The position numbers and the translations under genes were made by a program. DNA of 64,000 nt from Candidatus Levybacteria bacterium RIFCSPHIGHO2_01_FULL_40_16 (GTDB taxonomy: Bacteria > Patescibacteriota > Microgenomatia > Levybacterales > UBA12049), in the NCBI GenBank assembly GCA_001783805.1, contig MFNS01000001.1, positions 192,649-256,648 of the forward strand. The letters run 5' to 3'. The notes beneath the pieces are model-generated. The model worked only from the letters and a program-made list of their open reading frames with translations, was not told where the DNA came from and did no database searches. Position 1 is the first letter of the stretch, and each line of letters opens with the position of its first letter. Of this stretch, positions 18,528-60,440 are shown piece by piece.

Positions 18528-18770
18528 TTGATGTTTAATTAAATTTTCAATTGCAACCCTGCTTTTAAGCGATTTTAAATAAAATTCTCTTTTTCGAGCT
18601 TCTGATAACGTTTCATATTCTTCTTTGTAAATAAGTTTAAACGGTCCCCGATTTTTTGTATACTTTGAACGTCCTTTATTGTGATCTGTAAGCCGGCGAT
18701 TAATGTCAGTCGTACTGCCAATGTAATGTCTACCGTCAATATCACTTCTTAATATATAAGTCGTAAACAT
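18513..18770 (-). CDS. small GIY-YIG nuclease (UPF0213-like)
   Basis: MFTTYILRS...HYIGST...RRLTDHN...ARKREFYLKS; likely ATG at 18770; stop lies inside tRNA-Glu. Confidence 0.9.
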   Translation of the reverse strand: MFTTYILRSDIDGRHYIGSTTDINRRLTDHNKGRSKYTKNRGPFKLIYKEEYETLSEARKREFYLKSLKSRVAIENLIKHQASVV

Positions 18771-18969
18771 TTTGGTCCTAGGTTCCGATTTAATCGCGAA
18801 TGCTCGATGGATAAATCCATCGGCACCGCTAGCCCCGATGATCGGTGTCATCGGGATCCCGCACGAATGAAATTCGTCGGGAACGATGGCGGCAAGCATT
18901 ATTGATTATACCAACTTTCCTAAAAAAACCCAAGACTCACTTAAGAGCCTCGGGAGAATAAACTTTAAT

Positions 18970-42039: not shown

Positions 42040-43941
42040 ATGAACAATTTAACATCGGATAAAATTAGAAATATCGCGGTTATTGCGCACGTTGACCACG
42101 GAAAAACTACGCTTGTAGATTTCATGCTCAAGCAGTCCCATACCTTCCGCGAAAATGAAGCGGAAATGACTCAAACTACTATTCTTGATTCAAATCCCCT
42201 GGAAAGAGAGCGGGGCATTACTATTTTGGCCAAAAATACCGCAATAAATTACAAACCTGCCCGCAATGCTTCGCCCGCCGGCATGCCTTCGGCAAAGCCG
42301 ATGGCGGCCAGGCAACACGATGCAGGCGGGGACTACAAAATTAATATTATAGATACTCCGGGGCACGCGGATTTTTCAGGGGAGGTTGAAAGGACTCTCA
42401 ATATGGCAGACGGAGCGCTTTTGATTATTGATGCGTTGGAAGGACCGATGCCGCAAACTAAATTTGTGCTTAAAAAAGCCCTTGGAATAGGTTTAAAAGT
42501 GATTGTTATCATCAATAAAATTGATAAAAAACTCGCAGATATTGCAGATTCTTTTGAAAAAACCAATGATTTATTTCTGGAATTGGCAACCGATTCGGAA
42601 CAATTGAACTTTCCCGTTCTCTATGCCGTAGGCCGCGAAGGAAAAGCAGCGGTAAAACTGGAAGATGTACAGGGAAGCAAAGATTTAGACCCAATTATGC
42701 AAACAATTATCAATTATATTCCGGCTCCAAAAGTTGACGCCGGCCCGTTTAGAATGCTGGCGACTGCTTTAGATTACGATACCCACAAAGGCAAACACGT
42801 CATCGGCAGAATCAGAAGCGGTACTCTGGAAAAAGGACAAACAGTGGTTTTAATTAATGCTAAAAATGAAAAAATTCCTGCCAAAATAGAAAATATTTAT
42901 ATAAACCGCGGTCTTAAAAAAGACGAGGTTGAAAAAGTGAGGGCCGGGGAAATAGTTGACATTACCGGAGTTGACAATGTGACTATCGGAGATACGATCG
43001 CAGATTCCAGCAATCCGGTTGCGCTTCCGCGAATTTCAATTGAAGATCCTACAATCAAAATTGCTATTTTTGCCAACACCAGCCCTTTTGCAGGCAAAGA
43101 GGGGAAATATTCAAATTCCCGCCAAGTCTATGAAAGGTTAGTTAAGGAATTGGAAACGAATATCAGTATGAAGTTAGAGGTTATGGAAGATAAATTTGTA
43201 GTTTCCGGAAGAGGGGAATTGCATTTGTCGGTTTTAATTGAAACCATGAGGCGCGAGGGTTATGAGTTCCAAGTTGAAAAACCGGAAGTAATTACAAAAA
43301 TTATCAACGGCGTAGAGATGGAGCCGGTTGAAGATTTAATTATTGATGTTCCGGACGAATTTCAAGGAATAATTTCAAGAGAGTTAGGAGAAAGAAGGGG
43401 ACAAATGACCAATATGGATGCTGACGGAAAAGGTAACACGCGTTTTGAATACAAAATTCCTTCCAAAAATCTTCTGGGACTGCGGAATACTTTATTAACC
43501 AACACTAAGGGTACAGCGGTAATCAATACTATGTTTGATAAATACGAGCCGTTGACGCCTGTACTTCCTAAAATCAGAAACGGTGTCTTGATTGCATCGG
43601 AACCGGGAACTGCCTTAACTTTTGGCCTGCAAAACGCGCAAGGAAGAGGCATAACTTTTATTGACCCCGGAACATCGGTTTATGAGGGAATGATTGTCGG
43701 TCTAAATACGAGAAGCGATGATATTGAAATAAATGTTGCTAAAGGAAAACACTTAACCAATATGCGGTCCGCAAATGCGGACATTGCAATTGCTTTAACT
43801 CCGCCCCTCAAAATGAGTTTAGAACAATATTTGGATTTTTTGGAAGACGACGAGCTTTTGGAGGTAACACCGAAAAGTTTAAGGCTGCGTAAAAAACTTT
43901 TGACCCGTCTTGACCGTGTTAGGGCTGCAAGAGTACAATAA
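42040..43941 (+). CDS. typA: translational GTPase TypA/BipA
   Basis: IAHVDHGKTT, ERGITI, DTPGHADF, GRGELHL and EVTPKSLRLRK motifs; 25-aa insert. Confidence 0.97.
   Translation: MNNLTSDKIRNIAVIAHVDHGKTTLVDFMLKQSHTFRENEAEMTQTTILDSNPLERERGITILAKNTAINYKPARNASPAGMPSAKPMAARQHDAGGDYKINIIDTPGHADFSGEVERTLNMADGALLIIDALEGPMPQTKFVLKKALGIGLKVIVIINKIDKKLADIADSFEKTNDLFLELATDSEQLNFPVLYAVGREGKAAVKLEDVQGSKDLDPIMQTIINYIPAPKVDAGPFRMLATALDYDTHKGKHVIGRIRSGTLEKGQTVVLINAKNEKIPAKIENIYINRGLKKDEVEKVRAGEIVDITGVDNVTIGDTIADSSNPVALPRISIEDPTIKIAIFANTSPFAGKEGKYSNSRQVYERLVKELETNISMKLEVMEDKFVVSGRGELHLSVLIETMRREGYEFQVEKPEVITKIINGVEMEPVEDLIIDVPDEFQGIISRELGERRGQMTNMDADGKGNTRFEYKIPSKNLLGLRNTLLTNTKGTAVINTMFDKYEPLTPVLPKIRNGVLIASEPGTALTFGLQNAQGRGITFIDPGTSVYEGMIVGLNTRSDDIEINVAKGKHLTNMRSANADIAIALTPPLKMSLEQYLDFLEDDELLEVTPKSLRLRKKLLTRLDRVRAARVQ
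42256..42330 (+). mobile_element. nested pair of mini-elements, in frame in typA
   Basis: Outer CCTGCCCG...CAGGCGGG (36 bp net) contains an inverted CCCGCC...GGCCAGG copy (42274-42312, 39 bp). Confidence 0.85.
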
Positions 43942-47226: not shown

Positions 47227-47502
47227 ATGTATAAAGTTTATTTATTGCATAGCCTAAAAGACACAGGGATGTCTTACGTTGGATTAACAATTAAGGAAAT
47301 AGACAAGAGAGTTGAAGAACATAATAAAGGACTATCACAATATACAAAAACATTTAAGCCGTGGAGATTAGTTTATTACGAACTTTTCTATTGCAGAACA
47401 TGTGCCGAAAAAAGAGAACAATTCTTGAAAAGTGGAGTAGGATATCAATTAAGAAAACATCTGCTTACATTTAAGAATTCTTCTTTGAAGAACGGGGGTT
47501 AG
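47227..47502 (+). CDS. small GIY-YIG nuclease; stop overlaps outer tRNA-Pro
   Basis: VYLLHS...SYVGLT...RVEEHN...AEKREQFLKSG. Confidence 0.9.
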   Translation: MYKVYLLHSLKDTGMSYVGLTIKEIDKRVEEHNKGLSQYTKTFKPWRLVYYELFYCRTCAEKREQFLKSGVGYQLRKHLLTFKNSSLKNGG

Positions 47503-47516
47503 CTCAGTTGGCTAGA

Positions 47517-47559
47517 CCTGCCCGCAATTGCCTGGAGCCGATAGCGACTGGCAGGCGGG
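47517..47559 (+). mobile_element. empty 43-bp mini-element in D-arm of outer tRNA-Pro
   Basis: CCTGCCCG...GGCAGGCGGG. Confidence 0.85.
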
Positions 47560-47572
47560 GCGCGCGGTTTGG

Positions 47573-47681
47573 CCCGCCTGACTTGAAATGACGGGGTGTA
47601 GTTCATCGGTAGAACGCTCGGTTTGGGACCGAGAAGCAACAGGTCCAATTCCTGTCACCCCGACAAGTCATTTCGGGCAGG
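47573..47681 (-). mobile_element. 109-bp tRNA-Pro-carrying mini-element in anticodon loop
   Basis: CCCGCCTGACTTG...[tRNA]...CAAGTCATTTCGGGCAGG. Confidence 0.85.
47592..47663 (+). tRNA. inner tRNA-Pro(TGG)
   Basis: CGGGGTG...CTCGG-TTTGGGA-CCGAG...ACAGG-TCCAATT-CCTGT...CACCCCGA. Confidence 0.88.
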
Positions 47682-47777
47682 GACCGTGAGGTCGGAGGTT
47701 CAAATCCTCTACCCCCGACCAAGTTGAGTTTTTATGTGCTAAAATTGAAGTAGTTTACTTCGGATAATTAAAGCGGG

Positions 47778-47812
47778 CCTGCCCGCCGAAGTTCCGAAGG
47801 AACGTAGGCGGG
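47778..47812 (+). mobile_element. empty 35-bp mini-element whose end regenerates the tRNA-Gly 5' end
   Basis: GCGGG|CCTGCCCGCCGAAGTTCCGAAGGAACGTAGGCGGG|TGTAG. Confidence 0.8.
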
Positions 47813-47878
47813 TGTAGTTTAATGGCAGAACACGACTTTTCCAAAGTCGATACGAGGGTTCGATTCCCTTCACCCGCT
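47808..47878 (+). tRNA. tRNA-Gly(TCC)
   Basis: CGACT-TTTCCAA-AGTCG anticodon arm; GCGGGTG/CACCCGC acceptor. Confidence 0.93.
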
Positions 47879-48018
47879 CAGACACGAAAGGTATTGACAT
47901 ACTCCGATATATATGTCTTACTAGTATAAAGACCCGCCAACGCTCGCGTTTCGGCCTTCGGCTCGACGAAGTTAGTCTACGGCCAGACGAAGTCGGCGGG
48001 CAAGAAGGAGGTGATAAC

Positions 48019-48204
48019 ATGAAAACGCTTCAGCAAATAGCAAATGTACTCGTCATCGTAGGAGCACTCAATTGGGGATTGGTCGGACTTTTTAGTTATA
48101 ATTTGGTCGAATCTCTTTTGGGTGGACTTGGACTTGCCCAAATAACATACATTTTGGTCGGTTTATCCGGCGTATTGGCATTGGTAAACTGGGGAAAAAA
48201 GTAA
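48019..48204 (+). CDS. DUF378 family small membrane protein
   Basis: LVIVGALNWGLVGLF...YILVGLSG; SD AAGGAGGTGA. Confidence 0.88.
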   Translation: MKTLQQIANVLVIVGALNWGLVGLFSYNLVESLLGGLGLAQITYILVGLSGVLALVNWGKK

Positions 48205-48285
48205 ATCCGAAAGGTTTTACTGATATTGATAAGGTTTTATTCATCCCGGGATGAGATAGTTTAAACATATAGAAAGCTAGGGTAA

Positions 48286-49254
48286 TTGAAAGATGAAAAT
48301 CTTGTGTTTTTTTTGTTTTATATTAGGTATATGAGCATAATGAATTTAGATGAAGATGTCCTCCTTACTTTAGATTTTTTTACTAAAAATAAGCCACCGA
48401 CATTAGACATAAATAGATTTAAATTGCCTTTCGTTGTTGGTTCTGGAAACGCATACAACGCAGGAACAATTATATTCTCCAATATCGCTGCGACATTTGC
48501 CGATGAAAGCAATTTTAGAAAAACCGTAACTTCATTTGGAAACGCTATAAAAAAAGGCCTTATGAAAGATACCGTTGTAATATCTGCATCCGGAGGAAAA
48601 GATTCTGTTTGGGAAATTGAACTGTCCAGACAACACGGCCTTAAAACAACTTTATTAACTACAAAAGCAGAATCCGGAGCAGCCAAGATAGCCGATGAGG
48701 TCATCACCTACAAGTCGATTGCAGAACCTTATACTTATAACACTTCTACATACATGGGCATGGTGCTTGGATCAACGTGCGAAAACCCCTTAAAAATTAA
48801 AGAATTTATAGGAGAACTTAAATTTCCTGACGCTTTTGCTGATTATAAGGGATATACTTTCGTTCTTCCGGATAAGTATATGCAAATTTGCCCAATGCTG
48901 GAAATTAAAAAGAGCGAATTATTTGGACCTCACGTTTCCTTAAGAGCGTTTAGTCAAGGACACGCCAGACATGCTAAATTCGTAGTGAGATCTTCCGAAG
49001 AGTTAGTTATTTCCTTAGATCAAAAGAATGAGTATTTTGGAGATCCGAGCCATAGATGGGACATTGATCTGCCTGAAAATTCAAATTTCGCAATGATAAT
49101 GGCTCTTACTTATTATATTATAGGCAAAATCCAAGCTTCAAAGCCGCCATACTTTAAAGAAAATATAGGTAGGTACGTTAGCGAAGACGGCCCACAAGCA
49201 TACGGACAGAATACGAAACCTTTTGAAATAATTGTTCCGGGATCTGAAGCCTAG
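48286..49254 (+). CDS. SIS-domain (sugar isomerase-like) protein (start may be 48331 or 48340)
   Basis: VVGSGNA, VISASGG and LTT motifs. Confidence 0.65.
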   Translation: MKDENLVFFLFYIRYMSIMNLDEDVLLTLDFFTKNKPPTLDINRFKLPFVVGSGNAYNAGTIIFSNIAATFADESNFRKTVTSFGNAIKKGLMKDTVVISASGGKDSVWEIELSRQHGLKTTLLTTKAESGAAKIADEVITYKSIAEPYTYNTSTYMGMVLGSTCENPLKIKEFIGELKFPDAFADYKGYTFVLPDKYMQICPMLEIKKSELFGPHVSLRAFSQGHARHAKFVVRSSEELVISLDQKNEYFGDPSHRWDIDLPENSNFAMIMALTYYIIGKIQASKPPYFKENIGRYVSEDGPQAYGQNTKPFEIIVPGSEA

Positions 49255-49445
49255 CGGAGGATTTTGCGTTTGTTTAGCCTCATTTTTGATTTCACCCGGG
49301 CTTTTTTAGCTGAATCCTGTTCTTTCTGAAGCTTAATTCTGGCTTTGGTTCTTTTATCGATCGCTTTTTGACAAATCTCGTCCGGACATCTGTAAATTGT
49401 AGTCACTACCTTGGAAAAAGTATCCTTGGTTTCGGTTTTACCCAC
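49251..49445 (-). CDS. small zinc-ribbon hypothetical protein; frame extends upstream to include CSQC
   Basis: In-frame PQCSQCGK upstream of the called GTG, plus YRCPDEIC. Confidence 0.5.
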   Translation of the reverse strand: MGKTETKDTFSKVVTTIYRCPDEICQKAIDKRTKARIKLQKEQDSAKKARVKSKMRLNKRKILR

Positions 49446-49550
49446 AAAAATTAATCTTTTTCCACATTGACTACATTGGGGTAATTGTTTTTTTGAATTA
49501 GATATTCTCAGAGGCTACTATTATACCATATTTAGGCATATAATGTTTAA

Positions 49551-49859
49551 ATGATCAAATTTTTTGTGAAAGAAGCTGTAAATCTAAATGAAAAGATGCG
49601 GGGACTCATTGGCAAGGAACAGCCCTCCGCAATACTCATTAAAACTCATTACGGAATTCACACTTTTGGAGTAAAATTCCCAATTGATGTTTTAATTTTG
49701 AACAATGAAAATAAAGTTGTTTCAATGAAAAAAAATCTAAAACCTAACCGGATTTTCTTATGGAATCCGATGCATGAAAAAGTACTCGAATTGCCCGCTG
49801 GGACGATTGAAAAAGAACAAATAAAGATAAATATCCCTATTGACATCTCTATTTTATAA
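49551..49859 (+). CDS. DUF192 family protein
   Basis: MRGLI, IHTFGVKFPIDV and VLELPAG motifs. Confidence 0.85.
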   Translation: MIKFFVKEAVNLNEKMRGLIGKEQPSAILIKTHYGIHTFGVKFPIDVLILNNENKVVSMKKNLKPNRIFLWNPMHEKVLELPAGTIEKEQIKINIPIDISIL

Positions 49860-49877
49860 GCGCTACTATATTAGTTC

Positions 49878-50438
49878 ATGACGAAAGATACTAAATCAAC
49901 CGAAAAAGATGTCTGCCCTAAATGCGGAAGTTCACTGGCTGAAATAACCACTACCAGAACAGGGAAACAACTGCAAAGATGCTCAACCGGCTCATGGGAT
50001 CCCGACACTAGATCGAATGTTGGGTGTGATTATGTAAAATGGATTGAAGCCGAACCGCAAACTCTAGATGAAAAATGCCCAAAATGCGAAGCAAATCTTG
50101 TCCTTTCGGTTACCCGGTTTGGGAAGAAGATGAAAAAATGCTCTAAAGGCGGTTGGGACAGAGAAAAAAGAGTTGCCACAGGCTGTGATTATATCGAGTG
50201 GATTAATGGCACCAAAGAACCCCTTGATGAAGAATGTCCCCAATGCCAAAGCAAGCTGGTTTTATTCACTACCAATGCCGGGAAGAAGATGAAAAAATGC
50301 TCTACAGCCGGTTGGGACAGCAAAACCAGAACAGCCAGCGGATGCCCATATATCCAATGGCTTAAAGTCAGTGATTATCCTCAAATAAACAATAATGGAG
50401 GCGAGGAATTTTTACCACCGGAGCCGCAAGGAGAATGA
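49878..50438 (+). CDS. stand-alone triple zinc-ribbon protein (topoisomerase I C-terminal repeat-like)
   Basis: Three repeats of CPxC...GK..K.CS...WD......GC.Y..W. Confidence 0.7.
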   Translation: MTKDTKSTEKDVCPKCGSSLAEITTTRTGKQLQRCSTGSWDPDTRSNVGCDYVKWIEAEPQTLDEKCPKCEANLVLSVTRFGKKMKKCSKGGWDREKRVATGCDYIEWINGTKEPLDEECPQCQSKLVLFTTNAGKKMKKCSTAGWDSKTRTASGCPYIQWLKVSDYPQINNNGGEEFLPPEPQGE

Positions 50439-50852
50439 TTAATTAGCCAGTAATTCTTCCACAATGTTTTTATTTTGTGTGAAAAAAAGATCCGTAGAAG
50501 TAGCCAATTGGAGCTTATTTAATTCTTTTAAATCAAAAAATTGTAATTCTTGTCCTTCCGCCCGTTCAATAAGATTCACATTGTTATCCGTTAATTTCCC
50601 ATGATAAAAATAGGTATTTTTATTATCGGAGGGAGCAATCAATAGAAGCTTAACGTCGTTAATTTTTATATTCATATCCTCTTTTATGCACCTTGCAATT
50701 GTCTTTTCGCAGGACTCGTTACTGCCTTTTTCTCCTCCGATCATGCACCATGTTTTTTGTAGCCCCGAATTAAAAACATAATTTCTGATCATTAATAATA
50801 TTTTTTCTTTATAGGTTAAGAGGATTAAACTTTCATTGAGTTTGCGGATCAT
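50439..50852 (-). CDS. NUDIX-like hydrolase (degenerate box)
   Basis: WCMIGG...ESCEKTIARCIKED and EGQELQFF. Confidence 0.6.
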   Translation of the reverse strand: MIRKLNESLILLTYKEKILLMIRNYVFNSGLQKTWCMIGGEKGSNESCEKTIARCIKEDMNIKINDVKLLLIAPSDNKNTYFYHGKLTDNNVNLIERAEGQELQFFDLKELNKLQLATSTDLFFTQNKNIVEELLAN

Positions 50853-50926
50853 ATTTTAATTATACCACTTTTATCTCTGCAACAGTGGTTAAAGAATTAA
50901 AATTCTACCAAACTGCTTGACGCGGT

Positions 50927-51415
50927 TTATTTTTTTCGGGCTCCCGACAAATTTTCTAAGGCTTTTAGAACGCCGTCTGCGCCGGGATTTATACCGATAG
51001 GCGAGATGTATCCCCAAGCGATTTTTCCAGCTTTGTCAATTAAATAAAGCGACCGTTCGGACACTCCGTCTTCCTCATGATATGAATTGTAAAGTTTGGA
51101 AACTCTTCCCTTAGGATTAAAATCCGAAAGTAAAGGGAAGTGCAAATTTCTTTCTTTGGCAAAAGCCAAATGACTCCAAACATTATCAACTGAAATTCCC
51201 AGCATGACTGCCTTGTATTTTTTGAGCTCGGACAGGATCTCATTGAAAAGCATCATTTCGCCGCCGCACACGGGACTGAAATCTGCAGGATAAAAAGCTA
51301 AAATTACCGGTTTACCCGCAAAATCGGACAGGGAAACGGTTTGGTCCGGTGTTACTTTCAAACTGAAATCAGGCGCTTTTGTACCTTTTTTTAATGGTTC
51401 CTTATGTTCTTTCAT
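50927..51415 (-). CDS. peroxiredoxin (AhpC/TSA)
   Basis: FYPADFSPVC, GISVD and FPLLSDF motifs. Confidence 0.9.
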   Translation of the reverse strand: MKEHKEPLKKGTKAPDFSLKVTPDQTVSLSDFAGKPVILAFYPADFSPVCGGEMMLFNEILSELKKYKAVMLGISVDNVWSHLAFAKERNLHFPLLSDFNPKGRVSKLYNSYHEEDGVSERSLYLIDKAGKIAWGYISPIGINPGADGVLKALENLSGARKK

Positions 51416-51954
51416 TCCTTAATCACCTCCCTCGCCCACAATGTTTCCTTTATTGCCCTAAGTAACAAATCCAATTCATATGACTCATCAAAACGCGCGC
51501 CGTTAATATAAAAAGTGGGCGTACCGTTGACCCCGCTTCTGACTCCTGACATAAAATCATTTTTTACTTTTTTTATTATTTCTTCCGATTCGATGTCTTT
51601 ATTAAATTGCGCAATATCTAATTTTAGATTCTTTGCATAAGAAAGTAAATCCTGATTATCTAATCTCTCCTGATTTTCAAAAATCAAATCATGCATTTCC
51701 CAAAATTTTCCCTGTTTTCCTGCCGCTTCCGCAGCAGAAGCCGCGCGGAAAGCATGCGGGTGAATTTCGGAAAGGGGAAAGTTGCGGAAAACAAATTTCA
51801 GCTTGTTTCCCTCTATTTTTTGAAGTTCATTAATTATCGAATATGCTTCTTGACAATCCGGACACTCAAAATCTCCATATTCCACCAATGTAACCGGCGC
51901 ATTTTCTTTTCCCTTAGCGTGATCCTTCTTACTTACCGGAATAGTTAGTTTCAT
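51412..51954 (-). CDS. DsbA-family thioredoxin-fold protein
   Basis: EYGDFECPDC, RNFPL and GVNGTPTF motifs. Confidence 0.9.
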   Translation of the reverse strand: MKLTIPVSKKDHAKGKENAPVTLVEYGDFECPDCQEAYSIINELQKIEGNKLKFVFRNFPLSEIHPHAFRAASAAEAAGKQGKFWEMHDLIFENQERLDNQDLLSYAKNLKLDIAQFNKDIESEEIIKKVKNDFMSGVRSGVNGTPTFYINGARFDESYELDLLLRAIKETLWAREVIKE

Positions 51955-51966
51955 ATAATTAATAAT

Positions 51967-52281
51967 CTATCGGGCAAGAAAGACTAAAAGGATAATTGCG
52001 GCAAAAGTAATTATTGAAAGGAAAACTAGGGTATAAGTTAGCAATGATAAAGCTTCTTTTTTACGGCCGTCAATGTACATTTGCGCGGGCTTGCCAAAAA
52101 TCAAAAATCCGGTCATTGCTGCTGAAAATACAAAAAGCAAAAGTAAGGTGATAGGAGCAAGAAAAGTATTTACTCTTCCTATTTTTATGGCAGAGCCGTA
52201 ATACATAAAACTCCCAACCGCAATCACATATAAAGCCGTAAAAATGGAATTAACTAAAGCGGTTTTCTTAATCTCCTTCAT
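51967..52281 (-). CDS. three-TM membrane protein
   Basis: Hydrophobic 104-aa ORF. Confidence 0.65.
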   Translation of the reverse strand: MKEIKKTALVNSIFTALYVIAVGSFMYYGSAIKIGRVNTFLAPITLLLLFVFSAAMTGFLIFGKPAQMYIDGRKKEALSLLTYTLVFLSIITFAAIILLVFLAR

Positions 52282-52447
52282 AAAATTATGATAGCAAATT
52301 TATGCCCTCTTAATCCTTCCTTTGTTTTTAATTCTGTAAACGATATCTACTTCTGCTTTCAAATTTTCTACCACATCTCTTACAATTGGAGACATCATAC
52401 CAAAACGTACTTCGCCAACTGTAAATTGTCTTCCCACATAATCTATC

Positions 52448-52714
52448 CTATTTCTTACGTCTTCTGCTGAAAACGAGTGTCGGCGTAACTTTCTCGTTGA
52501 TTTTTTTTATTTTTTCAAGTAGGTCGCCAGCCGATTTTACCGGGGTAGCATTGGTAGTATCGCTTTCTATTCCCGGATTCATACTCGTGAGCTTTACGGG
52601 AATATAATCCTTAAGTAAATCCGTAAAATCCGCTGTTAATCTGCGCCGCTCGTCAGCAAGCGGTTTCCGGTTTTCAACCACACTACTTAGACGAGCTACC
52701 TGTTCCTTTGTCAT
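52448..52714 (-). CDS. hypothetical protein
   Basis: 88-aa ORF with TGGTATAAT -10 element upstream. Confidence 0.45.
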   Translation of the reverse strand: MTKEQVARLSSVVENRKPLADERRRLTADFTDLLKDYIPVKLTSMNPGIESDTTNATPVKSAGDLLEKIKKINEKVTPTLVFSRRRKK

Positions 52715-52864
52715 ATTTTCGCCCTTATTATACCAAATCTGTCAATTTCTGCAATTTCAACCTAAAAAATATTATTTTTACACCTATTCTCCTATATGTT
52801 ATAATCCGTTTTAGCTATACTAAATTGAGATAATTAGAGAAATTGATTTAAAGTGTGAATTATT

Positions 52865-53704
52865 ATGAATCAAATCGAAAATGGTGTATCAGTAAGGAGA
52901 GGGAGATTAAATACTCTAGAATTTGTAGATAGAAAAACAGTTCGTAAAACTAGTATTCTTCAAGAGACAACCAGACCACACCGCTTAAAAATAGAAGCTT
53001 GGGCTATTTCTGAAGCAAAATCCCGCGGCGTTAATGCACCAACTATTGTAGATTTTTATCAGAACAATAGGGGACAAGAAGTTCTTATTTTGGAAAGGAT
53101 TGACGGTAAGACTCTTTCACATTGTTCACTCCGAGAAAATGCTTCAAGCATGATAAGTGTGGGGGAACAAATGAGCCTGCTTGAGAATATTTCAAGCAAC
53201 TATGGCTGGATTGATCCCCAGACAATGACGGGGAAGAGCAAGGATTGGAAAATATTTCTACTATCGTATGCCCAAACATATGGGAATAGACTTGTCAATG
53301 AGGGCATAATTAGCAAAAAACATCTACAACACATATCTAGTGGAATTCAGGACACCGATTTAAGCACCTCTCCCTATTTAGTTCATAGAGATATAAAATT
53401 GGACAATCTTATAAAAGATAAGGATGGAAAAACATGGATCCTTGATTGGGAAAATGTAATACTAGGAGATCCCCTCTATGACCTTGCAATTTTTGGATTG
53501 ACTCATAAAGATATCCTGTGGGAAAATCTTGCTATCACCAAAAGGACTACGTACGATCCTCAAAAATATTCTATTTATGAAGCAGTTGCATTGATAGGAT
53601 TGATTGATTTTTGTCGAAAAAATAAAATTGACTTTATCGGAAGACAAAGACAATTCCATGATGCAGTTAATCGATTCGCTTTTTCTTCAAAACTGCATGA
53701 TTAA
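52865..53704 (+). CDS. aminoglycoside phosphotransferase/choline kinase family protein
   Basis: LVHRDIKLDN and ILDWE...GDPLYDLA motifs. Confidence 0.85.
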   Translation: MNQIENGVSVRRGRLNTLEFVDRKTVRKTSILQETTRPHRLKIEAWAISEAKSRGVNAPTIVDFYQNNRGQEVLILERIDGKTLSHCSLRENASSMISVGEQMSLLENISSNYGWIDPQTMTGKSKDWKIFLLSYAQTYGNRLVNEGIISKKHLQHISSGIQDTDLSTSPYLVHRDIKLDNLIKDKDGKTWILDWENVILGDPLYDLAIFGLTHKDILWENLAITKRTTYDPQKYSIYEAVALIGLIDFCRKNKIDFIGRQRQFHDAVNRFAFSSKLHD

Positions 53705-53724
53705 TAAAATTAAAAAGATCAATT

Positions 53725-55887
53725 ATGATAAAAGTCTCAGTAATTATAATTTCTTATAACAACCTTCATTGCCTAAAAAAAAACTTAGATAGTTTAACTA
53801 ATCAAACCTACGATCATAATGACATCAAAGTAGAATCTATGATAGTAGATAGTGGCTCGAAGACAGATTCGTTAAGAGCTCTACAAAAATATAAGGATAG
53901 GATAAAAATAATTTTAAAACCGCAATTTCTCTCTCGTCTTAGCCCCGCTGAAGCTAGAAATATGGGCGTTCGGAATTCAACTGGAGACATCCTAATCTTT
54001 AGTGATGCAGATTGCATTTTACCCCCTGCTTGGATACAAGACATAGCTGAATGTTTTAAAAACCCAGAGATTGACTGCGTTATGGGATCCCGAGAACCAG
54101 ATAAAGGACAAGGGCTGGGAACTATTATTAGGCGATTCAGCTTCATTCTGTATTCAAACAAATTTAGCATCCAGGAGTCCACGATAATTAACCAGAAGAA
54201 CCTAGATAAAGGCGAACCGCTTATTTTATTAAGTGGAAATAACTTTGCGATTAAAAAGAAAATATGGCTTAAGCTCGGTGGTATGAAAACCATTTTTAAA
54301 AACCCGGCAGGAGAAGATGTAATGCTGGAAAATGATCTGATTAAAAATAGCTATACAATTCTGTTCAATCCATTTATCAAAATTATTCACTTCCACCCAA
54401 TTTCTTTAGTAAATTTATTTAAAAAATGCATATATGGCGGAGAAGCAAGTTACGTTATTAGCAGATATCCAGATAGCTTAATTAGCTACAAATATTTTAT
54501 AGAACGTGGTCACCTTTTATCGTTTGGCACTTTCATTTTTATCATATTATTCATAATTTTTGCTACGTCAATGATTGTTTTAGATAAAATATCTTTTCTT
54601 TTTATATTATTTATTTTGTTTCTACTGACATCCACAGTCACATTTAGACTGATTAAACTTAAAAAAAAATTATCAGCAATTTTAATTACAAAAGGAAAGC
54701 AATATGAAACCAAATATAGTCTATCTACATTCCAATTGTCTTATTTTGGCTTAATTCATTTTATTGCAAAAACTATAACCCTCATAAGCTTCTTGAGATG
54801 CTATCTGTTTGACGGTCTATCTACACTTGATCTTCTTTTGAAAAACAAAAGCAATGACTATACGAGAGAAGCAAGGCGATTTCACAAAAAAACAGGACTA
54901 GACCTTCTTAGGGGACATGATAAGAATGTGCGAATTACTACGAGTTGCAGCATAATAATCCCTTTTTGCAATAATTATTTTTTCTTAAAAAAAAGTTTAC
55001 GCGCACTTTGCAATCAAATATTTCCAGTCAATTTTAAATTAAGCAAGATAGAAATAATTATTATCAACGACGGATCGCCTATTTGTTTAGAAAAACTCGT
55101 GACGCAGGCTGCAAAAGTTTATTCAACGACTTATTTGAAGCTGAAAAAGAATTACGGCGCTGCTACTGCTAGGAACTTAGGTTTACTTTATGCAAAAAAC
55201 GAGGTAGTCTTTTTTTTAGATGAAGATATGGTAGTCCCTAATGACTTCATTGTCAGCCATCTATTGAGACATATTTTCTTAAAAGATTGCATAATAGTCG
55301 GCTTCCGCCAAAACATTAGTTTAAGGAATCTTAATTTACGCACAAATCGTCTGGATAAAATTATTGCCGTTACCCCTAATTACAAAAATGATTTTAGATA
55401 TAAAAGATTTGTTCCTCAAGAATGGTCTGGCATTTATAGAAATGTCCCTGTCGATAATTTCAACAAAGAATATTATCCTTTAATAAATAGTAGATTTTTT
55501 AGAGACTATGGGAAAGGGAAGCTTATTGGGGTTTGGGATCTCCCATCAATGTTTTTGTCATGCAATGTTAGCGTACGAAGGAGACATATTACAGAATTAG
55601 GAGGATTTGACATGAGGTTTAAGAATTGCGGAATGGAAGATGTCCACTTGGGGGCAAAATTAATCGCTAAGGGTTTATATCTTATACCAAACCTCCATGC
55701 TACAGCTTATCACCTAGTTGATGTTGATTCTAATAGTAAGCAGAGAACGTCAATTGCAGACTATGAGAGAAAACTTGACTTATATTACAACCTGAGAAAT
55801 GAGGCATTGATTATCTTTAAGCGCAATCAGTGGCTAAAGCAAATGAGAAATTATTTTGCAAATAAGTTTGACGTTATTTACTCGTAA
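53725..55887 (+). CDS. double GT2 glycosyltransferase with central TM segments
   Basis: Two GT-A domains (VDSGS/ARN/SDAD/GED and INDGS/ARN/LDED/MED). Confidence 0.85.
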   Translation: MIKVSVIIISYNNLHCLKKNLDSLTNQTYDHNDIKVESMIVDSGSKTDSLRALQKYKDRIKIILKPQFLSRLSPAEARNMGVRNSTGDILIFSDADCILPPAWIQDIAECFKNPEIDCVMGSREPDKGQGLGTIIRRFSFILYSNKFSIQESTIINQKNLDKGEPLILLSGNNFAIKKKIWLKLGGMKTIFKNPAGEDVMLENDLIKNSYTILFNPFIKIIHFHPISLVNLFKKCIYGGEASYVISRYPDSLISYKYFIERGHLLSFGTFIFIILFIIFATSMIVLDKISFLFILFILFLLTSTVTFRLIKLKKKLSAILITKGKQYETKYSLSTFQLSYFGLIHFIAKTITLISFLRCYLFDGLSTLDLLLKNKSNDYTREARRFHKKTGLDLLRGHDKNVRITTSCSIIIPFCNNYFFLKKSLRALCNQIFPVNFKLSKIEIIIINDGSPICLEKLVTQAAKVYSTTYLKLKKNYGAATARNLGLLYAKNEVVFFLDEDMVVPNDFIVSHLLRHIFLKDCIIVGFRQNISLRNLNLRTNRLDKIIAVTPNYKNDFRYKRFVPQEWSGIYRNVPVDNFNKEYYPLINSRFFRDYGKGKLIGVWDLPSMFLSCNVSVRRRHITELGGFDMRFKNCGMEDVHLGAKLIAKGLYLIPNLHATAYHLVDVDSNSKQRTSIADYERKLDLYYNLRNEALIIFKRNQWLKQMRNYFANKFDVIYS

Positions 55888-55926
55888 TCCTACTTAGATT
55901 CGCCAAATTTTACTTTTTAGTTAGTG

Positions 55927-55997
55927 CTGCGGGACTAGGAATCGGACCTAGATTAGAGGATCCAAAGTCCTCCGTCCTACCATTAAACGATCCCGCA
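55927..55997 (-). tRNA. tRNA-Gln(TTG)
   Basis: TGCGGGA...GAGGA-CTTTGGA-TCCTC...TCCCGCAG. Confidence 0.9.
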
Positions 55998-56089
55998 ACG
56001 TAAAATTTGCACCCGCAAATCACGTTGCTGGCCAAGTCAGGCTTGGCCGCAATATTCAAAATTATATCATAAAGTCGAATTTTGATATA

Positions 56090-56482
56090 ATGAACAGTAT
56101 GACTGAAATATTAAGGAATCAAAATCTTGTCAAAATAGATCTTGAATTAATAGATGAATTAAATGTTTTCTATCTGGAATATTCAAGAAAAAGAGGCTTT
56201 CCTGATGCATTTTGTACCCAAATTAGTCACGACGTAGCTAACAATTTAAAATTAGACTATCAAGAAGGTACCTTCCGACTAGACAAACCAAACAGAAGTG
56301 GAATCACTAATCCAACATATGCATGGTGTACGGACGCGGATAAAATTATTATAGATCTAACACTCCATCAATTTAAGCCTTATTTAAATCCTGATGTTAA
56401 AATTTTTATTGGAGGTCCTCATATTATACGTCCCAACCAACCTCTTTATAAAAGATATTCACCCCTTAATAAACTTCATTAA
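56090..56482 (+). CDS. hypothetical protein
   Basis: 130-aa ORF; C...YAW...IIDLT resembles a papain/transglutaminase-like fold. Confidence 0.5.
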   Translation: MNSMTEILRNQNLVKIDLELIDELNVFYLEYSRKRGFPDAFCTQISHDVANNLKLDYQEGTFRLDKPNRSGITNPTYAWCTDADKIIIDLTLHQFKPYLNPDVKIFIGGPHIIRPNQPLYKRYSPLNKLH

Positions 56483-56483
56483 G

Positions 56484-56957
56484 TTATCTGCTGTAGAGAC
56501 CGATTAATTCTGATTTGTCAATAATATGGCCTTGCATTTCTTTTTCCAAGGTCTCCTTGCCTGGATTGTTTAAATTTAAAACTACATCCAAAGAGTAGAG
56601 CTTGAAGAAATATCGGTGGGTGCCGGATGGCTCGCCCGCTAACGCCTGAGCGTAGCGATGGCGAACGGGGGGACAGGGTCCGCCATAACTCTTTTTACCA
56701 AAACTTGTTGTCGCTTCAATTCCGCCTTTTGGAACACTATTTTCCGCAATTTCCACGGTATTTGGGTCAATATTAAATACAATCCAATGGATCCATGTTC
56801 CGCCCGGCGCATCCGGATCATCCATGATTAAGACTAAACTTTTGGCATTTGTGGGAATTTCAAGAAAAGACAGCGGGGGATTTATATTCTCCCCATCGCA
56901 GGTATATTTGGAAGGTATTTTGGAATTATTTTCAAAAACAGAACTTATTATTTTCAC
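56484..56957 (-). CDS. YbhB/YbcL (PEBP) family protein
   Basis: YTCDGENINPPL, DDPDAP, WIHW and GPCP[insert]PSGTHRY motifs. Confidence 0.92.
   Translation of the reverse strand: MKIISSVFENNSKIPSKYTCDGENINPPLSFLEIPTNAKSLVLIMDDPDAPGGTWIHWIVFNIDPNTVEIAENSVPKGGIEATTSFGKKSYGGPCPPVRHRYAQALAGEPSGTHRYFFKLYSLDVVLNLNNPGKETLEKEMQGHIIDKSELIGLYSR
56631..56669 (+). mobile_element. degenerate 39-bp mini-element, in frame in YbhB gene
   Basis: CTCGCCCG...GCGAACGGG; removal restores GPCPPSGTHRY. Confidence 0.75.
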
Positions 56958-56960
56958 GTG

Positions 56961-57031
56961 AGCGGGGTACGAGAATTGAACTCGCTTCTCTACCTTGGCA
57001 AGGTAGCATACTACCGGTGTACTAACCCCGC
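56961..57031 (-). tRNA. tRNA-Gly(GCC)
   Basis: CTACC-TTGCCAA-GGTAG anticodon arm; full cloverleaf. Confidence 0.9.
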
Positions 57032-57036
57032 TTGTG

Positions 57037-57109
57037 TGCCGAGAGCAGGAATCGAACCCGCATAACCGCTTCTTCAGAGCGGCGCCTTGACCTCGTTGGC
57101 AATCTCGGC
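57037..57109 (-). tRNA. tRNA-Phe(GAA)
   Basis: GCCGAGA...CCGCT-CTGAAGA-AGCGG...TCTCGGCA. Confidence 0.9.
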
Positions 57110-57547
57110 CTATTTAATTTTTTGCAATCTCCTGTATGTCCTGTCCCTATGACAATTAGCGCATACCAAGTCGCATTTTGCTATTTCTTCCTTTATTTTA
57201 TCAAATTTTACTAATTTTCGAAAGGTGAGAAACGAAATGCTTGCCACCTTTTTCTTTCCATCACGATGATCGAAATCCATCACCCATGCAGGGTATTTCT
57301 TCCCGCAGTCAAAGCATGGCTTGTTTTTAATTTTTCCCAAAAACTCCTTACGCTCTACTATGTATTTTAGTTTTCTTTTTTTGGCTAGATATAGCTGTCG
57401 CTCTCTGTTTTGATGATAATAATTTTTTCCGCGGATTTTATAACAATCTTTGCATTTTTCGTAATACTCACCAGCCCTTAAACCGCTTTTTCTTCTATAA
57501 AAATCTTTCAATTCCTTACTCAATCCACACTTCGAACATTTTTTCAT
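57110..57547 (-). CDS. HNH endonuclease with zinc fingers
   Basis: CSKC, CKDC, CFDC...MDFDH...KCDLVCANCH; stop abuts tRNA-Phe. Confidence 0.88.
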   Translation of the reverse strand: MKKCSKCGLSKELKDFYRRKSGLRAGEYYEKCKDCYKIRGKNYYHQNRERQLYLAKKRKLKYIVERKEFLGKIKNKPCFDCGKKYPAWVMDFDHRDGKKKVASISFLTFRKLVKFDKIKEEIAKCDLVCANCHRDRTYRRLQKIK

Positions 57548-57590
57548 TTATAATTTATAATAAACCGTAGTGAGTCGAAATGCAACTTTT

Positions 57591-57636
57591 TTCTTCAGAC
57601 GGAGAGGAAATCATTGACCGACTTGGCTACCTCGGC
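57591..57636 (-). pseudogene. 5' remnant of a tRNA-Phe
   Basis: GCCGAGGTAGCCAAGTCGGTCAA...CCGTCTGAAGA; no 3' half found. Confidence 0.65.
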
Positions 57637-57729
57637 ATGTATAAATGCTGTTGCTAGAATAATGTTAACTACCCAATGTCCTATTATTTACTAAAGCATG
57701 TATCTTTTACAAAAATTATTTATACATGC

Positions 57730-57987
57730 CTAGGCATGATCATTCCAGTCTTTTAATCTTTTCCGCAAATAACTTTTGCCCAAACGAGTTTTGAGATATT
57801 TTTCTCTACGATAAGCATCAATTTCGCTTAGGCTGGCTTCGTAGTATATTATATCAAATGGAGCATATGGGCTGGTAGACTTAACCATTTTCTCATTATG
57901 CTCTCTAAATCTTCCTCTTAAATCATTAGTACATCCTGTATACAGAAATTTTCTGGACGTACTTTTTAAAACATAAACGTAAAACAT
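57730..57987 (-). CDS. small GIY-YIG nuclease directly 3' of outer tRNA-Val
   Basis: MFYVYVLKS...LYTGCTNDLRGRFREHN...AYRREKYLK. Confidence 0.9.
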   Translation of the reverse strand: MFYVYVLKSTSRKFLYTGCTNDLRGRFREHNEKMVKSTSPYAPFDIIYYEASLSEIDAYRREKYLKTRLGKSYLRKRLKDWNDHA

Positions 57988-58041
57988 CTTGTGGACTCTA
58001 GAGGATTTGAACCTCTGACATCTTCGATGTAAACGAAGCGC

Positions 58042-58150
58042 CCGGCCTGACTGGACTTTGTGGACCCGAGAGGATTCGAACCTCTGACCTTCTCAGTGTA
58101 AATGAGACGCTCTACCAACTGAGCCACGGGTCCATTCAAAGTCGGGCAGG
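58042..58150 (-). mobile_element. 109-bp tRNA-Val-carrying mini-element in D-arm
   Basis: CCTGCCCGACTTTGAAT-[tRNA]-CAAAGTCCAGTCAGGCCGG. Confidence 0.85.
58061..58133 (-). tRNA. inner tRNA-Val(TAC)
   Basis: GGACCCG...TCTCA-TTTACAC-TGAGA...GGTTCGAATCC...CGGGTCCA. Confidence 0.93.
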
Positions 58151-58196
58151 TCTACCGCTGAGCTAAGAGTCCAGGGTGGACTTAATGATGTCCAGA

Positions 58197-59321
58197 TTGA
58201 ACCAATTATAGCAGATTTTGAGAGGCTAAGGTTAGCTTTTCAACTTAATTACCATTAGAGAATAGAAATTCAGTAATCCTGGTTTGGGATATTTATACCT
58301 TATCAACGGGTTTAGGATTTATTATTATAACCTGTAATTTGTCGAATAAGTTTGTTAGTGAGGGGTCTTCCGGGCCATTACCTTCAATAAAGGAGCTATA
58401 CGTTTGTGATTTTTCGTCCCATTCTATATTTCCATGGGGCAAGTCACGACCTAGAATTGAATAGAAAATATATAATTTTTTTTGAGTATCTGGTCTAGAA
58501 ATCGTTTCGAGCCACCTTTCATCCCTGTCATCCGACGATTCATATCCAGAGTGATACGTAGATGTATTTTCATGTTTAAATTTGTAGTCAGGATGACCTT
58601 TTAGAAATTTTTCAACTGCCGTTTTAATCCTATCTCCTACCGGTTTTGTCGGATCATCTTCGGGGTCGTCTTTTTCTGCATTCAGTTTCAATTTTTCTGG
58701 GCTCATCCGTCTAACTTCGTCAAGTGTAAATTTTTGGTTTGGTGCAGCGTAAGCTTCCAGAATTTTGTTAGCACACATCTCATCTAGAGCAAATGGACCA
58801 TCAAAAGACTCATCATTTAAATATGAGCCTTCTATCCATGTTCTATGTGAAATAACTGCCCATTCATTTCTATTTTTAACCCAAATAAAGATCAATTCAT
58901 AATCCTCATTCATTACTGCTAATCGTTCTCTTTTTATTGAGATAGCAGAATGACCTAAAACGGCCGTTTCTTGAGCGGGTAATCTCATTAAGGAATCGTA
59001 TTCCTTGGTTACCCATGGCGGGAGAGTGGAAAAGGTTGCATTTTCAGAAATTTGGATAATATTATCTCCATAAGAGCTGGTGTCTGGTCTACTTCTTACC
59101 CAATCACTCTTGCCAAAATTAATTTCAATTATCTTTTCTCGCTCTTCAGTCATTTCTGGGGGAATTATATTACCATAAGTTTTGAAAGTCAAATCATTCC
59201 TTGTCGCACAAGCTTTATTGAGACGTGGTTTTAAAGCTAAACAGCGTCATATACATACTGGTGGGCTTAGCGATGCTCAACTTGAACCAATTATAGCAGA
59301 TTTTGAGAGGCTAAGGTTAGC
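58197..59321. repeat. perfect 40-bp direct repeat containing an extended -10 element, flanking a hypothetical gene
   Basis: TTGAACCAATTATAGCAGATTTTGAGAGGCTAAGGTTAGC at 58197-58236 and 59282-59321. Confidence 0.9.
58293..59192 (-). CDS. hypothetical protein (start uncertain)
   Basis: 299-aa acidic ORF; no motif recognised. Confidence 0.6.
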   Translation of the reverse strand: MTFKTYGNIIPPEMTEEREKIIEINFGKSDWVRSRPDTSSYGDNIIQISENATFSTLPPWVTKEYDSLMRLPAQETAVLGHSAISIKRERLAVMNEDYELIFIWVKNRNEWAVISHRTWIEGSYLNDESFDGPFALDEMCANKILEAYAAPNQKFTLDEVRRMSPEKLKLNAEKDDPEDDPTKPVGDRIKTAVEKFLKGHPDYKFKHENTSTYHSGYESSDDRDERWLETISRPDTQKKLYIFYSILGRDLPHGNIEWDEKSQTYSSFIEGNGPEDPSLTNLFDKLQVIIINPKPVDKV

Positions 59322-59350
59322 ATTTGACAAGATAACTTGCATGAATTCAT

Positions 59351-59713
59351 TTATAAATTATCTATAATCTCACCTAGTCTATCCATTTCTCTTTTGGAAA
59401 CATTTGCATCGGCGCCATCAATACCTTCAATTGAGTTCGATAAGCCAACTGTCTTTATTTTTGGTTTTCTTTTACGTATCTCATCAGCCAAAAGCTGACC
59501 TTCGCCGCCTACCCAGCTTAATTTCCCATCAAGTGTAATTACTTGGATTCCTAATTTGTCTACTTCGCCTCCACGAATCTTTCCTAGAGCATCAAAGAAC
59601 TCGTTGCTTGTCAGAACCACCTTATGACCCGCTTTTTCTAATACCTGTTTAATTCCATCCTGATAATATTTGTCGTCTTCAACGACAAATATTCTTGCTT
59701 CTTTTGGCGACAT
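59351..59713 (-). CDS. orphan receiver-domain protein
   Basis: VVEDD, ITLDGKL, GLS and VSK motifs; resembles 39436-39807. Confidence 0.7.
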   Translation of the reverse strand: MSPKEARIFVVEDDKYYQDGIKQVLEKAGHKVVLTSNEFFDALGKIRGGEVDKLGIQVITLDGKLSWVGGEGQLLADEIRKRKPKIKTVGLSNSIEGIDGADANVSKREMDRLGEIIDNL

Positions 59714-59733
59714 ACTATTTTTTAAAAAAAGAT

Positions 59734-59818
59734 TGGTGGGCCCGAGAGGACTTGAACCTCCACTCCTTTCGGAATACGCACCTCAAGCGTACGCGTATAC
59801 CAATTCCGCCACGAGCCC
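59734..59818 (-). tRNA. tRNA-Leu(GAG)
   Basis: TACGC-TTGAGGT-GCGTA anticodon arm; variable arm; encoded CCA. Confidence 0.95.
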
Positions 59819-59835
59819 AAACTTGTCTAATTATA

Positions 59836-60123
59836 TCATTTATCGATCTTGACTTCGGGATATATCAAGCTAACATTAGTTATTTGTCTTTTGGGATGAT
59901 CCAAATATTCTCTCCAAAATTCTTCTCCGAATATCAGAACTTTTGAGCAAGGACCAACATGAATCGTTTCCTCTGCCATTCCTGTTTTAGCTTTCACAAC
60001 CCCACCCATTCCTTGCGTATAGCCAATAACTTCAAGATTGACTAAGCCACAACCCCTATCTTCTATTTGAAATGTTTTTGAATTCAAATAAAGGCTTCCT
60101 GTTTTCTCAGAAGAAATAGTCAT
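59836..60123 (-). CDS. hypothetical protein
   Basis: 95-aa ORF between two tRNA-Leu genes. Confidence 0.45.
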   Translation of the reverse strand: MTISSEKTGSLYLNSKTFQIEDRGCGLVNLEVIGYTQGMGGVVKAKTGMAEETIHVGPCSKVLIFGEEFWREYLDHPKRQITNVSLIYPEVKIDK

Positions 60124-60156
60124 AAGTATAAATTCTTAGTGCCCAGGGGGAGATTC

Positions 60157-60198
60157 CCTGCCCGCCATCAGCTGTCGCCTCAGGCGACTGCAGGCGGG
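60157..60198 (+). mobile_element. empty 42-bp mini-element in T-loop of outer tRNA-Leu
   Basis: CCTGCCCGCCATCAGCTGTCGCCTCAGGCGACTGCAGGCGGG. Confidence 0.85.
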
Positions 60199-60242
60199 GA
60201 ACTCCCAAGCCCTTGCGGACACAGCGTTCTGAACACTGCATG

Positions 60243-60351
60243 CCCGCCTGCCAGAGTGCCCCAAGAGGGACTCGAACCCTCACGTCCTTGCGGACACAGC
60301 GTTCTGAACACTGCATGTCTACCATTCCATCATCGGGGCACGGCGGACAGG
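60243..60351 (-). mobile_element. 109-bp tRNA-Leu-carrying mini-element in D-arm
   Basis: CCTGTCCGCCGT-[tRNA]-CTCTGGCAGGCGGG. Confidence 0.85.
60257..60339 (-). tRNA. inner tRNA-Leu(CAG)
   Basis: GCCCCGA...CAGTG-TTCAGAA-CGCTG...GGTTCGAGTCC...TTGGGGCA. Confidence 0.92.
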
Positions 60352-60440
60352 TCTACCATTTCATCACCTGGGCGCATGTTGATTTTACCAGAAGCAGTTT
60401 TACTTGACAACAATGACAAAAAATGCGATTATGATAGACA

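Follow-up and report, generated by a model that had tools for sequence, protein, structure and literature searches.

Intact tRNA genes nested inside matching tRNA genes of Patescibacteria: a candidate class of protein-less mobile cassettes

Rickettsia palindromic elements (RPEs) are short palindromic repeats that lie in frame in the housekeeping genes of a reduced genome, and their mobiliser is unknown. Integrative phages and islands break an essential tRNA gene at their att site, restore its function and leave a tRNA fragment behind; they carry an integrase, are kilobases long and bring only part of the tRNA, from which crossover within a common core makes a hybrid gene. Homing-endonuclease cassettes can come with a replacement gene end, and the phage T4 nuclease SegB is encoded in a tRNA cluster. 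Here we analyse a 64,000-nt stretch of Candidatus Levybacteria bacterium RIFCSPHIGHO2_01_FULL_40_16 (GCA_001783805.1, contig MFNS01000001.1, positions 192,649 to 256,648; subsequently referred to as the window) in which three tRNA genes are each interrupted by a short palindromic element that holds a complete tRNA with the same anticodon. We give somewhat better than even odds (roughly 55%) to the reading that these are protein-less elements with CCTGCCCGC/GCAGGCGGG ends, whose cargo, an intact same-anticodon tRNA, moved as a mobile cassette and replaced the gene that it broke.

Two further systems come close. According to the main texts of two studies, REPINs are non-autonomous hairpin units of ~70-110 bp with inverted ends and a spacer constrained in length over sequence (Bertels and Rainey 2011, PMC3116915; Quentin et al. 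2018, PMC6006769). They are described there as doublets of REP palindromes that lie outside genes and are linked to a RAYT flanked by the same REP; excision is precise, and transposition as single strands is proposed. The main text of Chenal et al. (2025, PMC11893778) reports small stand-alone GIY-YIG nucleases (Ssn/SsnA) of host-associated bacteria that come with NTS/SRM hairpin repeats and act on transforming single-stranded DNA; SsnA was shown to cut, not to join. None of these three main texts mentions tRNA. The preliminary description of the window, made from its letters alone, knew of no system with this layout, and we found no description of nested-tRNA cassettes in the literature searched, in which the coverage of subscription journals is thin.

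The preliminary description had reported three inserts of exactly 109 bp, in the genes for Pro-TGG, Val-TAC and Leu-CAG, with CCTG(C/T)CCG...CAGGC(G/C)GG ends, a complete inner tRNA in the orientation of the interrupted gene, no target-site duplication and no group I core. All of this was borne out (coordinates in Table 1). Arm, tRNA and arm measure 19+72+18, 17+73+19 and 12+83+14 bp, respectively, and each insert folds into a cloverleaf tRNA atop an extended stem (z -3.7, -2.9 and -3.8). Both ARAGORN and Rfam recognise the inner tRNAs as intact, and Rfam matches in the window were tRNAs only. Each inner tRNA is the sole gene for its anticodon among the 45 tRNAs called in the host genome (labelled G000; 898 kb in 7 contigs, 98.9% complete).

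Two other claims stood in part. Removal of the 109-bp insert in silico does bring back the outer Val tRNA, which is then fully paired, but the outer Pro and Leu tRNAs are called by ARAGORN only if a second short element (43 and 42 bp, respectively) is removed as well. The inner genes were said to be divergent from the outer ones, which does not apply to the centre of the Leu cargo: over 41 nt it has exactly the sequence of the outer gene, probably as a result of gene conversion. In the Pro gene, the ends of the 109-bp element run in reverse relative to the tRNA, and the insertion follows position 36, not 23. The same genome contains a fourth nested pair, Val-CAC inside Val-CAC (C1:148968-149079, L253), with a cassette of 112 bp inserted after position 37 and arms of the same family as those of the Val-TAC cassette in the window.

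tRNA genes and palindromes are repeats at which assembly graphs branch, and in sequencing run X1 many foreign contigs were found on them. It is conceivable that tRNA genes of different organisms were joined at repeated palindromes by the assembler. However, independent unitigs of run X1, which may be the source sample, span both Val junctions and the left Pro junction without a mismatch; among the X1 pieces listed, no unitig reached across the right Pro junction or the Leu junctions. Near-identical cassettes also occur at the same site in other genomes, and the census below holds 136 cases with precise ends and cognate anticodons. An assembly artefact is therefore an unlikely source of the nested loci, and to a chimera as the general explanation we assign a negligible probability.

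For the census we searched 201 genomes of the order (30 loci and 40 stretches from the matches listed), 401 genomes of the phylum, GTDB and metagenome contigs (at least 120 loci each) and IMG/VR (100 loci). The counts hold among the matches listed, in which genomes of close kin are not independent samples. With the two ends around a tRNA called by ARAGORN as the sole requirement, and the flanks left free, 144 distinct cassettes emerged. Eight with a locus GC of at least 0.58 were set aside (two of them with cognate flanks); in one candidate set, 9 of 115 had been dropped as chance matches in GC-rich records from outside the Patescibacteria. The 136 cassettes counted are 93-135 bp long and lie in low-GC, mostly Patescibacteria loci.

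When the joined flanks were aligned to the passenger, the outer anticodon was the same in 116 cassettes, changed in 15 and absent in 5, with the proviso that a few strongly decayed cases may have been misread by the automated procedure. By eye, the 15 changed outers are relics in decay, in which one or two bases are substituted or an arm has been replaced. A blind classifier that compared the outers with 334 tRNAs returned the same anticodon in 102 cases, the same amino acid in 25, another one in 4 and none in 5; upon manual inspection, all nine exceptions were judged to be cognate remnants. Not one of the 136 tRNA cassettes lies in plain intergenic DNA or in a tRNA gene of a clearly different kind. 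The passengers represent 30 anticodons, the ends are found in both orientations (107 and 29 cassettes), and insertion took place after positions 9, 16-18, 21-23, 26, 33-39 or 56; these sites belong to the D arm, the anticodon loop and the T loop. Thr, Arg and Val account for 80 of the 136, and cargo for Ser, Tyr, Phe, His, Asp or Asn was not seen among them. One arm family holds Val-TAC, Val-GAC and Val-CAC cargo at different loci. The 100 IMG/VR loci contained no tRNA cassette in virus DNA (one strict pattern was used, which variants may escape). We also noticed hints of more than two layers, or of extra arm copies, around single tRNA loci (L044, L247, L269). Cognate cassettes occur in records labelled Ignavibacteria, Edwardsbacteria and one Flavobacteriaceae isolate (L139, L152, L151, L207), which may reflect binning or a wider range.

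Cassettes might land anywhere, with only those surviving that restore what they break. Strong filtering does act on the short forms described below, which insert almost without specificity and of which 63 in 100 have lengths that are multiples of three, and long forms with orphan interiors are found at unrelated intergenic sites. However, neutral intergenic sites far outnumber the cognate gene. Selection alone is disfavoured because many neutral intergenic tRNA cassettes would be expected, and none was seen. The cognate match also extends to C34 anticodons (Val-CAC, Thr-CGT, Leu-CAG), which might be covered by wobble. Random insertion followed by selection thus seems unlikely to us.

Empty sites at orthologous loci, another check that had been suggested, are present in relatives of the same genus for Pro, Val and Leu. 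The Pro-TGG gene is empty in G003 and G005, whereas G006 has the inner type with a worn right arm. At Val-TAC, G005 is empty, the outers of G001, G002 and G006 are half-deleted and G003 carries an outer/inner chimera. The Leu-CAG gene is empty in G003, G005 and G006. All three are nested in G000. A related 110-bp cassette occupies the Leu-CAG site in G088, but its inner core, unlike that of G000, is not identical to the outer one. The allele series and the 136 cassettes support the earlier proposal of a non-autonomous element that supplies a replacement tRNA.

The alternative considered in the preliminary description was an RNA-level intron: the insert would be cut from the precursor and the outer halves ligated, which would yield two tRNAs per gene. 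The boundaries are indeed precise and free of duplications, and several insertion sites match known tRNA intron positions. The Val outer is fully paired, and stem mispairs are absent from 36 of the 60 best-preserved outers (and from 49 of 60 inners). Against this, neither a tRNA splicing endonuclease nor RtcB was found in the 98.9% complete genome, the Pro and Leu genes would take two excisions each, and close relatives have outers that are decayed or half-deleted, or have lost them. Short elements within reading frames mostly have lengths divisible by three, and the frames run on through them; both end orientations exist. Our results lend no support to RNA splicing, which we regard as very improbable. 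The outer genes are best read as dying relics and not as spliced precursors, since empty, nested and inner-only alleles occur in one genus and endonuclease, RtcB and group I core are all missing.

The cassettes are not restricted to tRNA genes. A 110-bp cassette in rplK (G000:C4:20620-20729, L398) brings a ribosome-binding site and a new set of the first 18 codons. Its excision restores the old start, the empty allele is present in four genomes of the same genus, and no cassette was found in 15 other rplK starts that were read. The old rplK start runs into the cassette, and its stop overlaps the new ATG (TAATG), which suggests translational coupling. Cassettes of 99-101 bp provide replacement C-termini of topA in three genomes and of an ABC permease in two, with the old ends retained (L049, L095, L096; L098, L099). 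Differences between old and new ends are mostly silent in five of six comparisons (synonymous/non-synonymous: rplK 8/4; topA 6/2 and 5/3; permease 11/2 and 10/3). In addition, cassettes of 99-112 bp sit inside a hairpin motif and carry an intact homologue of that motif (two copies in L064, and L032). It has no Rfam match and is possibly an undescribed structured RNA or DNA site.

Where do the passengers come from? The Val cassettes of G000 and of G049, a member of another genus, are identical at 102 of 109 bases, whereas the acceptor stems of their outer Val genes differ by paired changes. In the acceptor stem, inner tRNAs are no closer to their own outer (identity 0.62) than to unrelated outers with the same anticodon (0.63), and the same is true of the T stem. 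They are closer to their own outer in the D arm (0.86 vs 0.81) and the anticodon stem (0.65 vs 0.52; p 0.003 over 55 non-independent pairs). This pattern agrees with an import and subsequent local conversion, or with targets chosen for their similarity. It is most likely that the cassettes moved in from other lineages and took over the job of the gene. Duplication in place with subsequent decay was considered as well and is contradicted by the silent-site and paired-stem divergence, although inner and outer are 92-99% alike in four pairs. Adenine mutagenesis as in diversity-generating retroelements was rejected as a source of the passengers, the differences being paired or silent and, by eye, not specific to A.

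The preliminary description had further assumed that element size is constrained and that the flanks shrink as the cargo grows. A preference in size is real, but it is loose: the range of 93-135 bp and the 112-bp Val-CAC cassette in the same genome rule out a strict 109-bp rule. Lengths of tRNA cassettes peak at 106-111 bp, with a mode of 109 bp, the sum of 36-37 bp of arms and a tRNA of 72-73 nt; long-arm tRNAs give 108-135 bp. Compensation by the flanks, as in the three splits of the window, is true for just four of eight long-arm cargoes. For elements that have typical arms around an orphan interior, the length peak is at 99-103 bp (33 of 46; sizes searched, 96-122 bp); they are located at unrelated sites, including intergenic ones. 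With this peak of non-tRNA interiors, the size preference extends beyond tRNA cargo. Long forms overall measure about 100-112 bp with a passenger of 65-85 nt and constitute a real size class that is not set by the tRNA. Elements of 65-95 bp gave 24 matches in the 201 genomes, mostly nested doublets or chance. Orphan elements of ~100 bp often have AT-rich interiors (L258 and L265-L268 in G540; L245, L262 and L264 in G452; many of L433-L552), and in G540 several of them occupy the centre of another palindromic repeat.

How could such a cassette reach its target? Functional passengers, be they a tRNA or a gene end, are located at the matching gene, and short forms are near-random. We propose that the cassette would move as single-stranded hairpin DNA, for which entry by natural transformation is plausible. 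ComEC and DprA are both present in the genome and provide a possible entry route. The passenger would pair with its chromosomal homologue and so bring the ends to the matching gene, where a trans-acting enzyme that cuts and joins single strands may insert the cassette. The inner tRNA would then be transcribed from the old promoter and freed by normal tRNA processing, without splicing of the outer one. It was seen that the old copy afterwards decays, disappears or recombines with its successor. It is possible, though we hold it only tentatively, that this is a general homology-guided system, in which a hairpin wrapper with 9-bp ends captures ~70 nt and the passenger serves as guide to the matching locus in another lineage.

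A different route to the same picture is recombinational homing, in which nested alleles arise rarely and spread between lineages through transforming DNA that recombines via the conserved tRNA halves or gene ends, without transposition to new sites; cleavage of the empty allele by a small GIY-YIG nuclease may perhaps help. Homing explains the cognate placement and the recurrence of cassettes at one position across genera and families. ComEC and DprA would serve it as well, 8 of the 11 small GIY-YIG genes in the genome adjoin tRNA or tmRNA genes, and the raised identity of inner and own outer in the D arm and anticodon stem indicates that the copies recombine. However, homing leaves unexplained the dozens of separate origins that it needs, given 30 anticodons, many positions and both orientations. 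The outer halves are host-specific right up to the insert, one arm family carries three kinds of Val cargo at different loci, and GIY-YIG genes show no enrichment at nested tRNAs (9 of 70) over plain ones (11 of 110; p 0.63). We regard homing as the less probable account, although it is the strongest competitor of mobile cassettes.

As the enzyme that would insert the mobile cassettes, an HUH Y1 protein of the RAYT-like kind is our first, still tentative, choice, and a small GIY-YIG nuclease is a doubtful second. Y1 genes are present in 31 of 33 genomes with at least three short elements and in 77 of 168 others; for GIY-YIG genes, the numbers are 28 of 33 and 65 of 168. The genome's own RAYT-like Y1 gene (G000:C4:18700-19100, L401) has one REP-like palindrome on both sides, and the order has many relatives of this gene that carry repeats of their own. 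As a partner of the cassettes it was rejected, being flanked by those other repeats. A neighbouring GIY-YIG gene as mobiliser in cis was discarded on the missing enrichment just given and because the empty Pro site of G003 has no such gene beside it. Pairing of an internal guide with the target was also tried, and the one candidate failed (z 1.0). Larger nestings without the ends described here, consisting of a tRNA 5' relic, a small GIY-YIG gene and an intact tRNA, occur at three loci (Table 1).

Several observations weigh against mobile, homology-guided cassettes. Co-occurrence singles out neither enzyme, since Y1 and GIY-YIG genes score about equally and kin are not independent. No autonomous element was found: the 30 Y1 loci of the order, like the genome's own, are flanked by other palindromes. 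No covariation of guide and target emerged from 100 short elements, for which the best z was 3.7 and the maximum under permutation 3.6. The interiors of long orphan elements have no homology to their flanks, so that homology is not required for every long insertion; they belong to no Rfam family, and the two examined match nothing else in four genomes. One topA case is frameshifted (2/8) and lacks the silent-site pattern. The outers without mispairs fit a recent insertion but a retained function as well, and the model does not account for how a tRNA first entered the arms. Finally, no movement, circle, excision or RNA was observed.

The cassettes belong to a larger family. About 33 elements with these ends are present in the genome (35 matches, two of them counted on both strands), compared with one match in the reversed genome, which excludes chance as their source. 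Short forms are 30-45 bp long and are found in coding, intergenic and tRNA DNA without target duplication. In a sample of 100, they occurred in all contexts with only a weak purine preference at -1. Among matches that lie within open reading frames, 12 of 18 are multiples of three, and four of the other six are two 20-bp palindromes that were counted on both strands. Further short elements occur in the flanks of 21 of the 136 tRNA-cassette loci. Short elements in general often lie within tandem 7-base repeats and tRNA relics (L611-L710). A 5' relic of an Arg tRNA that is broken by a 45-bp element directly precedes an intact tRNA-Arg(CCG) (G000:C7:169560-169711, L403). An intact tRNA-Asn (C7:98920-98990) and a tRNA-Thr(TGT) (C2:22813-22885) in the same genome are each flanked by inverted repeats of other families, which suggests further cassette types. 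Only one tRNA with a CAT anticodon was called in G000 in a search without introns; tRNA-Ile(TAT) is present.

Table 1. Features of the nested tRNA loci, related elements and neighbouring genes (window positions unless a contig is named)
Feature	Position	Strand	Remarks
Outer tRNA-Pro(TGG), doubly interrupted	47493..47721	+	pieces 47493-47516, 47560-47572, 47682-47721; ARAGORN after both removals
43-bp short element without cargo	47517..47559	+	D arm of outer Pro, after position 23
109-bp Pro cassette	47573..47681	-	ends reversed relative to tRNA; after position 36
Inner intact tRNA-Pro(TGG)	47592..47663	+	ARAGORN, Rfam
Outer tRNA-Val(TAC), interrupted	57992..58172	-	pieces 58172-58151, 58041-57992
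109-bp Val cassette	58042..58150	-	after position 23
Inner intact tRNA-Val(TAC)	58061..58133	-	ARAGORN, Rfam
Outer tRNA-Leu(CAG), doubly interrupted	60140..60373	-	pieces 60373-60352, 60242-60199, 60156-60140
109-bp Leu cassette	60243..60351	-	end of D arm (after ...GGTAGA)
Inner intact tRNA-Leu(CAG)	60257..60339	-	ARAGORN, Rfam
42-bp short element	60157..60198	+	T loop of outer Leu, after position 56
75-bp element (39-bp nested in 36-bp)	42256..42330	+	in frame in bipA/typA; same end family
42-bp short element	41075..41116	-	in frame near start of Y-family polymerase gene; same end family
35-bp element variant	47778..47812	+	right end overlaps first bases of tRNA-Gly(TCC); present in G005 too
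Small stand-alone GIY-YIG nuclease gene (Pfam PF01541)	47227..47502	+	stop codon within 5' end of outer Pro
Second small GIY-YIG gene	57730..57987	-	directly 3' of outer Val
Larger nesting, Glu-TTC (L399)	18453-18900		nuclease stop codon within tRNA
Larger nesting, Ile-GAT (L402)	G000:C1:407367-407750		nuclease stop codon within tRNA
Larger nesting, Asn-GTT (L400)	G000:C7:98800-99310		

This non-autonomous system, a variant of palindromic mobile DNA, is real, widespread and apparently undescribed. It points to an exchange of the most conserved genes (tRNAs, ribosomal protein and topoisomerase ends) between lineages through DNA that is too short to code for anything. This bears on the evolution of tRNA genes, on the horizontal transfer of the translation apparatus and on how Patescibacteria genomes are annotated, in which relic halves and surplus tRNA fragments go unnoticed or receive a wrong call. 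If insertion is indeed guided by the passenger, the enzyme would be a new kind of DNA-programmable, duplication-free inserter, and throughout the Patescibacteria foreign copies would keep overwriting essential tRNA genes and gene termini. With the empty, nested and resolved alleles that close relatives offer, targeting is a question that can be tested directly.

A comparison with the known systems places the cassettes between several of them. Like RPEs, the short forms lie in frame and are read through, in bipA and other genes, but RPEs are not known to bring a replacement gene or to target a cognate. Integrative elements share the principle that a broken tRNA target is restored by sequence brought in; the cassette, in contrast, has ~110 bp, no protein and no att duplication, carries a complete divergent gene, uses many positions and leaves both old halves in place. 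The silently divergent, foreign gene ends beside the displaced native ends resemble those of homing-endonuclease cassettes, which encode their own nuclease, whereas the cassettes here encode no protein. Group I and archaeal bulge-helix-bulge introns of tRNA genes make equally precise interruptions at anticodon-loop and D-arm positions; they differ in having a core, or an endonuclease and ligase, which are missing here, where the outer genes decay. With elements of the IS200/IS605 type the cassettes have in common exact empty alleles and the lack of a target-site duplication, but those elements use a fixed target of 4-5 nt that is read by an internal guide, and here we found only a purine preference at -1 and no guide covariation.

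Small GIY-YIG genes and dispersed hairpin repeats are reminiscent of the Ssn system, but the cassette ends are unlike the SRM consensus, and the main text of PMC11893778 mentions neither tRNA nor Patescibacteria. One SRM-flanked Ssn homologue appears to exist elsewhere in the genome (G000:C1:395450-395900), a GIY-YIG gene between hairpins that fit the SRM consensus by eye. REPINs offer the closest parallel: two inverted ends, one hairpin and a spacer conserved in length more than in sequence; the long elements here peak at the two sizes given above for orphan and tRNA interiors, and these interiors are unrelated. The differences are that the ends are 9-mers and not REP hairpins, that no RAYT carries these ends, and that the elements insert into tRNA genes and reading frames. 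In the cassettes, the spacer can even consist of an entire functional gene, which comes to lie in its cognate. By analogy, the cassette works most like a REPIN, yet it falls outside the REPINs as they are defined, and likewise outside the integrative elements and the tRNA introns.

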